The notes beneath the pieces are model-generated. The model ran no database searches, was not told the DNA's origin, and worked only from the letters and a program-made list of their open reading frames with translations. 64,000 nt of DNA, from the NCBI RefSeq assembly GCF_003334785.1, contig NZ_QOWV01000006.1; one strand, 5' to 3'. Within the stretch, counting starts at the first letter, position 1; each line of letters opens with the position of its first letter. The translations under genes were made by a program, and so were the position numbers. Below are positions 45,844-47,748 of the stretch, piece after piece. Source of the stretch: Escherichia coli (GTDB lineage: Bacteria; Pseudomonadota; Gammaproteobacteria; Enterobacterales; Enterobacteriaceae).

Positions 45844-46539
45844 ATGCTGAAGCGTTTCTTTATTACCGGTACAGACACTTCTGTAGGGAAAACGGTGGTT
45901 TCCCGCGCATTGCTACAAGCGTTAGCCTCCCAGGGAAAAACGGTTGCGGGATATAAACCCGTAGCGAAGGGGAGCAAAGAGACACCCGAAGGGCTGCGTA
46001 ATAAAGATGCCCTGGTGTTGCAGAGTGTTTCAACCATCGAACTGCCTTATGAAGCAGTTAATCCTATCGCGTTAAGCGAAGAAGAAAGTAGCGTGGCGCA
46101 CAGTTGCCCAATCAATTACACCCTCATTTCAAACGGCCTGGCAAACCTGACCGAAAAAGTCGATCATGTCGTGGTAGAAGGGACTGGCGGCTGGCGCAGT
46201 CTGATGAATGATTTGCGTCCACTCTCTGAATGGGTAGTGCAGGAACAACTGCCGGTGTTGATGGTTGTCGGTATTCAGGAAGGTTGCATTAACCATGCAC
46301 TGCTAACAGCTCAGGCGATCGCCAACGACGGGCTGCCGCTCATTGGCTGGGTGGCTAACCGAATCAACCCAGGACTGGCGCATTATGCGGAAATCATTGA
46401 TGTGCTGGGTAAAAAACTTCCGGCACCGCTCATTGGTGAACTGCCTTATCTGCCGCGCGCCGAACAGCGTGAACTGGGGCAATACATCCGCTTAGCTATG
46501 CTGCGCAGTGTGCTGGCGGTAGATAGAGTCACGGTGTAA
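45844..46539 (+). CDS. ynfK: Dethiobiotin synthetase paralogue YnfK (BioD-like)
   Basis: ORF 45832..46539; start at [17 protein letters not shown] (P-loop), 231 aa. Confidence 0.9.
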
Positions 46540-47748
46540 CGTCCGCGAAATTACCGACGCAATTACGCAGGCAATCAATAAACCGGGGAGTAGCTGATAC
46601 TCCCCGGTCATTTCACATATCATCAACGTCGACATAATCGGCGCGTGCGTGGTCGCCGCCAACAGTGTCGCCATCCCGGTCAATCCGAGTAAAAGTGTAA
46701 TTTCTTCGCCATCAGGGAACCATAATCCCAGGCTACGACCATACAACATGCCAATGGCAAGACCGATAAATAGCGTCGGTGTAAAGACCCCACCGGGTGC
46801 GCCGGAACCGCTACTCGCCAGCACGGCACACAGTTTACAAAGGAAGATCCCGGCAATGATCATTAACAGTGGTGGGGCGGTTAAAAAGGATTGTACGGTG
46901 CTATAGCCGTTGCCCCACACTGCAGGTGTGAACAGGGAAAGCAGACCCACGATCAACCCGCCTAGTGCCAGTTGCCAGGGCGGCGCAAGTTTGAGACTCA
47001 CAAATCCACGATGACAGGCGTTCATTAACGTTAACAACAGTGGTCCGCACAGACCTGCCAGCACACCTGTACTGATAATCAGCGCATAGTCACGAGCCTG
47101 AACCGTCACTGAGAGTTGTACGTTGTAGAGTAACGCGTCGCTATGATTAATCAGATTGCTAACCAGCAATGCCACGACGGCGGAAATAATCACCGGGCCG
47201 AGAGAGGCCAACATCATAGTGCCAAACAGCACTTCGGCTATAAATAAACTGCCAGCAAGCGGGGCACGATAGGCCGCAGCCATTCCCGCCGCGGCCCCAC
47301 AGGCGATCCATAATTTCCACTCCTGGCGTGGCGTAAAACGTTGGGCAAAACAGGAGGCGGCAAGGGCAGCTTAAAGAATCATCGCACCTTCGCGACCAAT
47401 TGCACTGCCGCTGGTTACTACCAGCAGAGAGGCAAGCGATTTAACCAGGCTTGCTGCGTAATCGAACTGTCCATCGGTTTGCAACGCTTCCATATAATCG
47501 GTCGGCGCATGAGGGCGTTGTTGGGTAAATTTCTGCCAGCCCATCAGCAACAAACCCGCCGCCAGTCCGCCGAGCGCCGGAGTTAGCAACCGTCGCCAGG
47601 GGGAAAGGTTTGTCGCTGCATTGACCAGACTGCCGGAGTCATTATTGAGGAACAACCACTCCAGTAGCAGCATCGCATGACGAAACCCGGCAACGGCAAA
47701 GGCCGCGAGAATACCGACGACTGTTGCGATAAGCAGACGGCGGAACAT
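46492..47748 (-). pseudogene. clcB: ClC-family voltage-gated chloride channel ClcB interrupted by an in-frame TAA stop (at 47368-47370)
   Basis: Two same-frame ORFs (47371..47808 ending ...GREGAMIL and 46492..47283) are separated by a single TAA; the joined frame gives a continuous 418-codon CLC protein. Confidence 0.8.

Follow-up and report, generated by a model that had tools for sequence, protein, structure and literature searches.

The window, by which is meant the whole 64,000 nt stretch of Escherichia coli DNA analysed here, carries on its minus strand a copy of the CLC-family gene clcB that is interrupted by a premature ochre stop codon (TAA, 47371–47373). As delimited by PGAP, the pseudogene covers 46492–47784, which is 430 codons, and these coordinates are those of the clcB feature labelled 'pseudo, internal stop' in strain VE-F10. 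The PGAP start is an upstream ATG at 47784. In the UniProt-style frame, which lies at 46492–47748 and has 418 codons when the stop is read through, the stop is codon 126, and it is codon 138 in the PGAP numbering. From the start of the 418-aa frame, the numbering of which is used here, the translatable N-terminal part (47374–47748, minus strand) is 125 codons long, ends in GREGAMIL, and keeps the gating glutamate E120; from the PGAP start, the protein would end after residue 137. A residual open reading frame on the same strand, downstream of the stop (46492–47283), runs from Met156 to Ser418 and has 263 aa and a stop codon.

A previous sequence-only reading of this DNA had described two same-frame ORFs split by a single in-frame TAA, and this is indeed what is present on the minus strand at clcB, where the upstream ORF (47371–47808) ends with GREGAMIL and the stop and is in frame with the ORF at 46492–47283. 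The position given there for the stop, 47368–47370, is offset by 3 nt and is that of the next codon, GCT (Ala), the sequence around the stop being GCG ATG ATT CTT TAA GCT GCC CTT GCC. The other claims made for the gene hold. Reading through the stop does give one continuous 418-codon CLC frame, from 47748 to 46492, with the Voltage_CLC domain extending across the stop (Pfam PF00654, residues 60–402 of the read-through translation, model positions 1–346 of 346, E = 3.7e-81). Truncation had been expected after about 125 residues, and the product ends after residue 125 when the 418-aa start is used. The TTA-to-TAA type of change, which had been a guess, is borne out by alignment to K-12, E. coli C, and FDAARGOS_1337, a direct check of codon 126 finding TTA in all three.

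The causal base is 47372, where T>A on the coding strand turns TTA (Leu126) into TAA. There are 2 differences in 1293 nt between the window and clcB of K-12 MG1655 (1291/1293 identical), one being this T>A and the other an A>G that gives R3 in the window and H3 in K-12 (H3R). Identity to E. coli C, which ranks among the closest genomes that lack the clcB stop, is 1292/1293, with 47372 as the sole difference. A single T>A transversion has converted the leucine codon into the ochre stop.

In K-12, ClcB is the second ClC-type chloride/proton exchanger and is implicated in extreme acid resistance. In the window this very gene (YnfJ/MriT; UniProt P76175 in K-12) occupies the locus that it has in K-12, and the gene order dmsD-clcB-bioD-mlc, in which bioD is a bioD paralogue, is shared by K-12 and the window; with TTA at codon 126 there and TAA here, the window sequence can yield no more than the first 125 residues. 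The bioD paralogue is the next gene after clcB and is convergent to it, therefore there is no gene downstream that is exposed to polarity. The 3' ends of clcB and the bioD paralogue (ynfK, 45844–46539) overlap by 48 nt (46492–46539), which is also the case in K-12 and is not lineage-specific. In all nine of the complete genomes that carry the same stop, clcB is marked 'pseudo, internal stop' by RefSeq/PGAP. The pseudogene status of clcB is already known in public annotation, where RefSeq flags the gene, and a search of the literature on clcB pseudogenes and nonsense changes found no publication on the clcB TAA allele.

What the truncated product would lack can be judged against ClC-ec1/ClcA (PDB 1OTS, 1KPK), a paralogue of ClcB rather than its orthologue, which has a homologous fold over residues 5–402 (E = 4.5e-26). 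The two proteins align at the gating glutamate of GREGx, at GxFxP, and at the central Tyr, with an offset of +28, such that E120 of the GREGA motif corresponds to Glu148 and L126 to I154. The clcB stop is six residues beyond the gating glutamate, and downstream of it this alignment places GGVFTP (GxFxP) and the equivalent of Tyr445 (GEYQL). The position of I154 in ClC-ec1 is in the first turn of helix F, and the dimer interface of that protein is made up of helices H, I, P, and Q. Translation in the window would therefore stop at residue 125, at the start of helix F and shortly beyond GREGA with its gating glutamate, and what follows this glutamate is predicted to be untranslated. The product keeps 125 of 418 residues and loses 293; 66 of the 343 residues of the Pfam domain are kept, with about 80% of Voltage_CLC lying after the stop. 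A complete transport domain, that is GxFxP, the central Tyr, and the dimer-interface helices in the polypeptide, is not found in the 125-aa product. As helices G–R, what remains of helix F, the anion-binding GxFxP motif, and the central tyrosine are all lost, there would be no ion pathway. Judged by its sequence, the TAA allele would be a null allele, and clcB of the window would be a CLC-family pseudogene, orthologous to ClcB, and not a functional member of the family.

Two further features were seen in the alignment of ClcB to ClC-ec1. There is a gap at the ClC-ec1 GSGIP serine motif (ClcB residues about 79–90, window ~47480–47515, minus strand), and at about residue 175 (window ~47225, minus strand) Ser-Asp stands in place of the internal Glu203 of ClC-ec1. 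The gap and the replacement of Glu203 suggest that ClcB is a divergent ClC; they are shared by all E. coli ClcB proteins and are not specific to this allele.

The two ORFs were considered as two genuine separate genes and this was rejected, given that a single Pfam domain crosses the stop and that clcB is unbroken in nearly all genomes. The survey set was 5,426 complete RefSeq E. coli genomes, with Shigella and draft genomes covered solely by an exact-protein look-up. Of these complete genomes, 5,421 have clcB DNA and 5,413 have a single-piece match over at least 80% of the query.

It could also be argued that the two polypeptides, residues 1–125 and 156–418, assemble as a working split ClC. 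Some pipelines do call both ORFs as genes, Voltage_CLC is matched by both, and complementary fragments of eukaryotic CLC channels were reportedly found by Schmidt-Rose and Jentsch in 1997 to reconstitute function. Residues 126–155, however, which by the ClC-ec1 alignment would make up helix F and the first part of helix G, are absent from both pieces. There is no in-frame ATG, GTG, or TTG between the clcB stop and Met156, and the sequence before the ATG of Met156 is GCGGCGGGAATG. With GGGA directly before this ATG, and the bases abutting it being GCGGCGGGA, there is no usable spacing for a Shine-Dalgarno site. The 263-aa downstream ORF is probably untranslated, and reinitiation giving a complementing C-terminal fragment appears unlikely from these features. 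The downstream ORF is still open, with a single missense change in the nine carriers, but a young pseudogene would be expected to keep it open anyway, and the split form is missing from 5,417 of the 5,426 genomes. The one change in the dead part of the gene is M179I in JKHS016 (window-equivalent 47212). This near-absence of further decay is consistent with a young pseudogene, and on its own it would also be expected if the downstream part were still selected. On balance, a working split ClC is very improbable.

The reading frame is perfectly kept across the clcB stop, as it would be if the stop were read through, by programmed recoding or a suppressor tRNA, to give a useful level of full-length ClcB. 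The stop is nevertheless derived, being found in only 9 of the 5,426 genomes and not conserved across orthologues, and with a derived state of such rarity there can have been no evolution of a recoding signal around the stop. TAA is not used for selenocysteine or pyrrolysine. The base after the TAA is G, and this TAAG context is one that Poole, Brown, and Tate reportedly placed, in 1995, among the strongest for termination in E. coli. With the context and the pseudogene call by PGAP also against it, useful read-through is scarcely to be expected, and termination at codon 126 is the preferred reading.

The distribution of the allele supports its reality. A 41-nt probe centred on the clcB stop matches exactly nine of the 5,426 genomes by Megablast, and since Megablast requires a 28-nt exact word, a centred probe of this length matches only genomes with the allele of the window. 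For the 61 nt with the stop at their centre, nine of the 5,426 genomes show 100% identity and 4,151 others have one mismatch, among which the mismatch was confirmed to be the stop base for K-12, E. coli C, and FDAARGOS_1337 only. The carriers, which are 0.17% of the complete genomes, come from eight countries on four continents and from several hosts. They are FDAARGOS_1248 (USA), VE-F10 (Viet Nam), LR-64-2 (Ecuador), 200112 (Mali), PEC399 (pig, South Korea), AST198 (Japan), 364_BP0073 / OZ121069 (Cambodia), E423 (cloacal swab, China), and JKHS016 (hospital wastewater, Japan). The window is identical to none of these nine and is a further carrier. That it is the VE-F10 sequence was considered and rejected, the two being four SNPs apart and divergent after 63927.

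In a collection of 15 billion proteins (NCBI, ENA, Logan), the exact 125-aa product is present on 619 public contigs and the 263-aa downstream ORF on 689. The 125-aa product is found in 936 index blocks, and the loci that were read all have the context ynfH-dmsD-clcB-bioD-mlc. An additional carrier of the 125-aa product is CP026836.1 (GenBank, 5.1 Mb), which is outside the RefSeq E. coli set. In this sequence (segment 1694–2307) dmsD is split into ORFs of 52 aa and 148 aa and the ynfF call is shortened, which suggests either that further genes are pseudogenes or that the assembly is prone to frameshifts.

Single-base differences are the commonest type of assembly error, and the window itself is represented by an assembly, without reads, which might suggest that the TAA came about through faulty sequencing or assembly of a single record and that clcB is in truth intact. 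The same allele is, however, present in nine complete genomes that were obtained independently, by different laboratories in different countries and in different sequencing projects. The truncated product occurs without any change on the 619 contigs, and the allele is completely linked to a second SNP 9.1 kb distant. Because of the nine independent complete assemblies and the contigs with the product, base-call error is excluded for the allele as such, and that clcB is really intact behind a faulty record is hardly conceivable.

The second SNP is a synonymous change in codon 135 of speG at 56475 (minus strand), with TAT here and TAC elsewhere. A 41-nt probe on this SNP matches 9 of the 5,426 genomes, and these are the same nine that have the clcB TAA. 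The stop and the speG SNP are 9.1 kb apart in the window; in AST198, where a prophage and rearrangement have left speG ~40 kb from clcB, both SNPs are still present. The complete linkage of these two derived SNPs across 5,426 genomes indicates identity by descent, and the suspicion in the sequence-only reading that the inactivation may be lineage specific agrees with the carriage of the TAA and the linked SNP by the same nine genomes.

Across the ~30 kb of core sequence that they share, there are 1–5 SNPs between the carriers, and two sites, 47372 and 56475, consistently set them apart from E. coli C and FDAARGOS_1337, the two closest of the non-carriers that were examined. The G at 35335 is common to VE-F10, PEC399, OZ121069, and LR-64-2, while the SNPs at 50554, 52066, and 52709 are common to 200112 and FDAARGOS_1248, and the remaining SNPs among the carriers nest without homoplasy. 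The fact that the carrier SNPs nest without conflict means that the stop is older than the diversification of several sublineages. The mutation appears to have a single origin, in a sublineage of phylogroup A that resembles E. coli C, and the allele has persisted through the diversification of the lineage and its worldwide spread.

The naming of this lineage rests on one typed isolate, JKHS016, which was typed as ST43 (supplement of PMC11832570). The haplotype of the window is nearly identical to that of E. coli C. We take E. coli C to be phylogroup A, and ST43 to belong to the ST10 complex.

All 61 of the CDSs annotated in VE-F10 were translated directly from the window, and this bears out the earlier claim that no core gene in it other than clcB is evidently inactivated. 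Of the other genes, 59 are intact, which are all the chromosomal genes from nth to rspB together with the prophage int/xis, and, besides clcB, the sole defective gene is a prophage-remnant exonuclease that is cut by an IS-associated junction.

At the right end of the window (63602–64000), this 3'-5' exonuclease gene is truncated at 63602, and a fragment of a transposase comes after it. Seven of the nine carriers run into IS30 and IS600 from 63928 onwards, where the window departs from them, therefore there is a different junction or IS content at the right end of the window. In the corresponding region the exonuclease gene of E423 is intact, and AST198 does not have the region. Other lesions were seen in individual carriers. 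There is an internal stop in ynfE of E423 (segment 12907–15333) and an fhuA frameshift in PEC399 (segment 20224–22388). In AST198 there is a Rac-like prophage beside a shortened ynfG, at the normal ynfE/ynfF site, as well as an ISShdy1 insertion in ydgI (segments 1–17900 and 34395–37443 for this strain).

Of the nine carriers, four were examined for clcA (VE-F10, OZ121069, PEC399, and FDAARGOS_1248), and in all four the gene is intact and encodes WP_000845394.1, which is K-12 ClcA. A clcA clcB double knockout has acid survival far below that of the wild type or either single knockout (review, PMC10394335). As only the double knockout loses acid survival strongly, and clcA is intact, a mild phenotype is to be expected. 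Loss of clcB would thus have a mild phenotype and the allele would be near-neutral; the loss is presumably tolerated, with the intact paralogue ClcA covering their shared role in extreme acid resistance. A mild phenotype fits the persistence and spread of the TAA allele.

The same gene has also been inactivated in FDAARGOS_1337, which is very closely related and whose 30-kb flanking haplotype is of the same background, almost identical to that of the window. In this strain IS30 is present ~800 nt into clcB, and codon 126 is the wild-type TTA, in contrast to the window, which makes this an independent event by another mechanism. The IS30-disrupted clcB is at 20117–22632 of the segment retrieved from NZ_CP070026.1. 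This shows that clcB is dispensable enough to have been lost more than once, and two loss events are too few to separate selection from drift.

That a null allele has survived diversification into several sublineages and is found in several hosts and on four continents, and that a close non-carrier has lost clcB independently through IS30, might suggest that inactivation of clcB is adaptive and has been selected in the ST43-like sublineage, beyond mere toleration. If true, the TAA and the IS30 knockout of FDAARGOS_1337 would be convergent adaptive events, for example with removal of the exchanger being beneficial in a niche. The carriers are, however, just 0.17% of the complete genomes, and the data are explained equally well if a near-neutral mutation has hitch-hiked within a clonal lineage. 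Purifying selection on clcB dominates, as its DNA is present in 5,421 of the 5,426 genomes, in a single piece (at least 80%) in 5,413. Adaptive inactivation is improbable. It is very likely that clcB in the window is a recently formed, vertically inherited pseudogene, which arose via one nonsense change and is presumably tolerated because ClcA is intact.

This pseudogene does not differ substantially from the ordinary PGAP-flagged nonsense pseudogenes of E. coli, of which it is a typical example, those having one derived stop, clonal inheritance, and little further decay, as is seen here. As an ordinary lineage-specific pseudogene with no new mechanism, it has little significance beyond bookkeeping, in which clcB should be entered as a pseudogene, as RefSeq does already. 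Taken together, the clcB TAA and the speG SNP do make a clean marker of two SNPs, by which one phylogroup-A sublineage of global distribution can be recognised. The carriers would, in addition, be natural clcB-null strains with an intact clcA, and as such may be usable for the study of the redundancy of ClcA and ClcB in acid outside of K-12.
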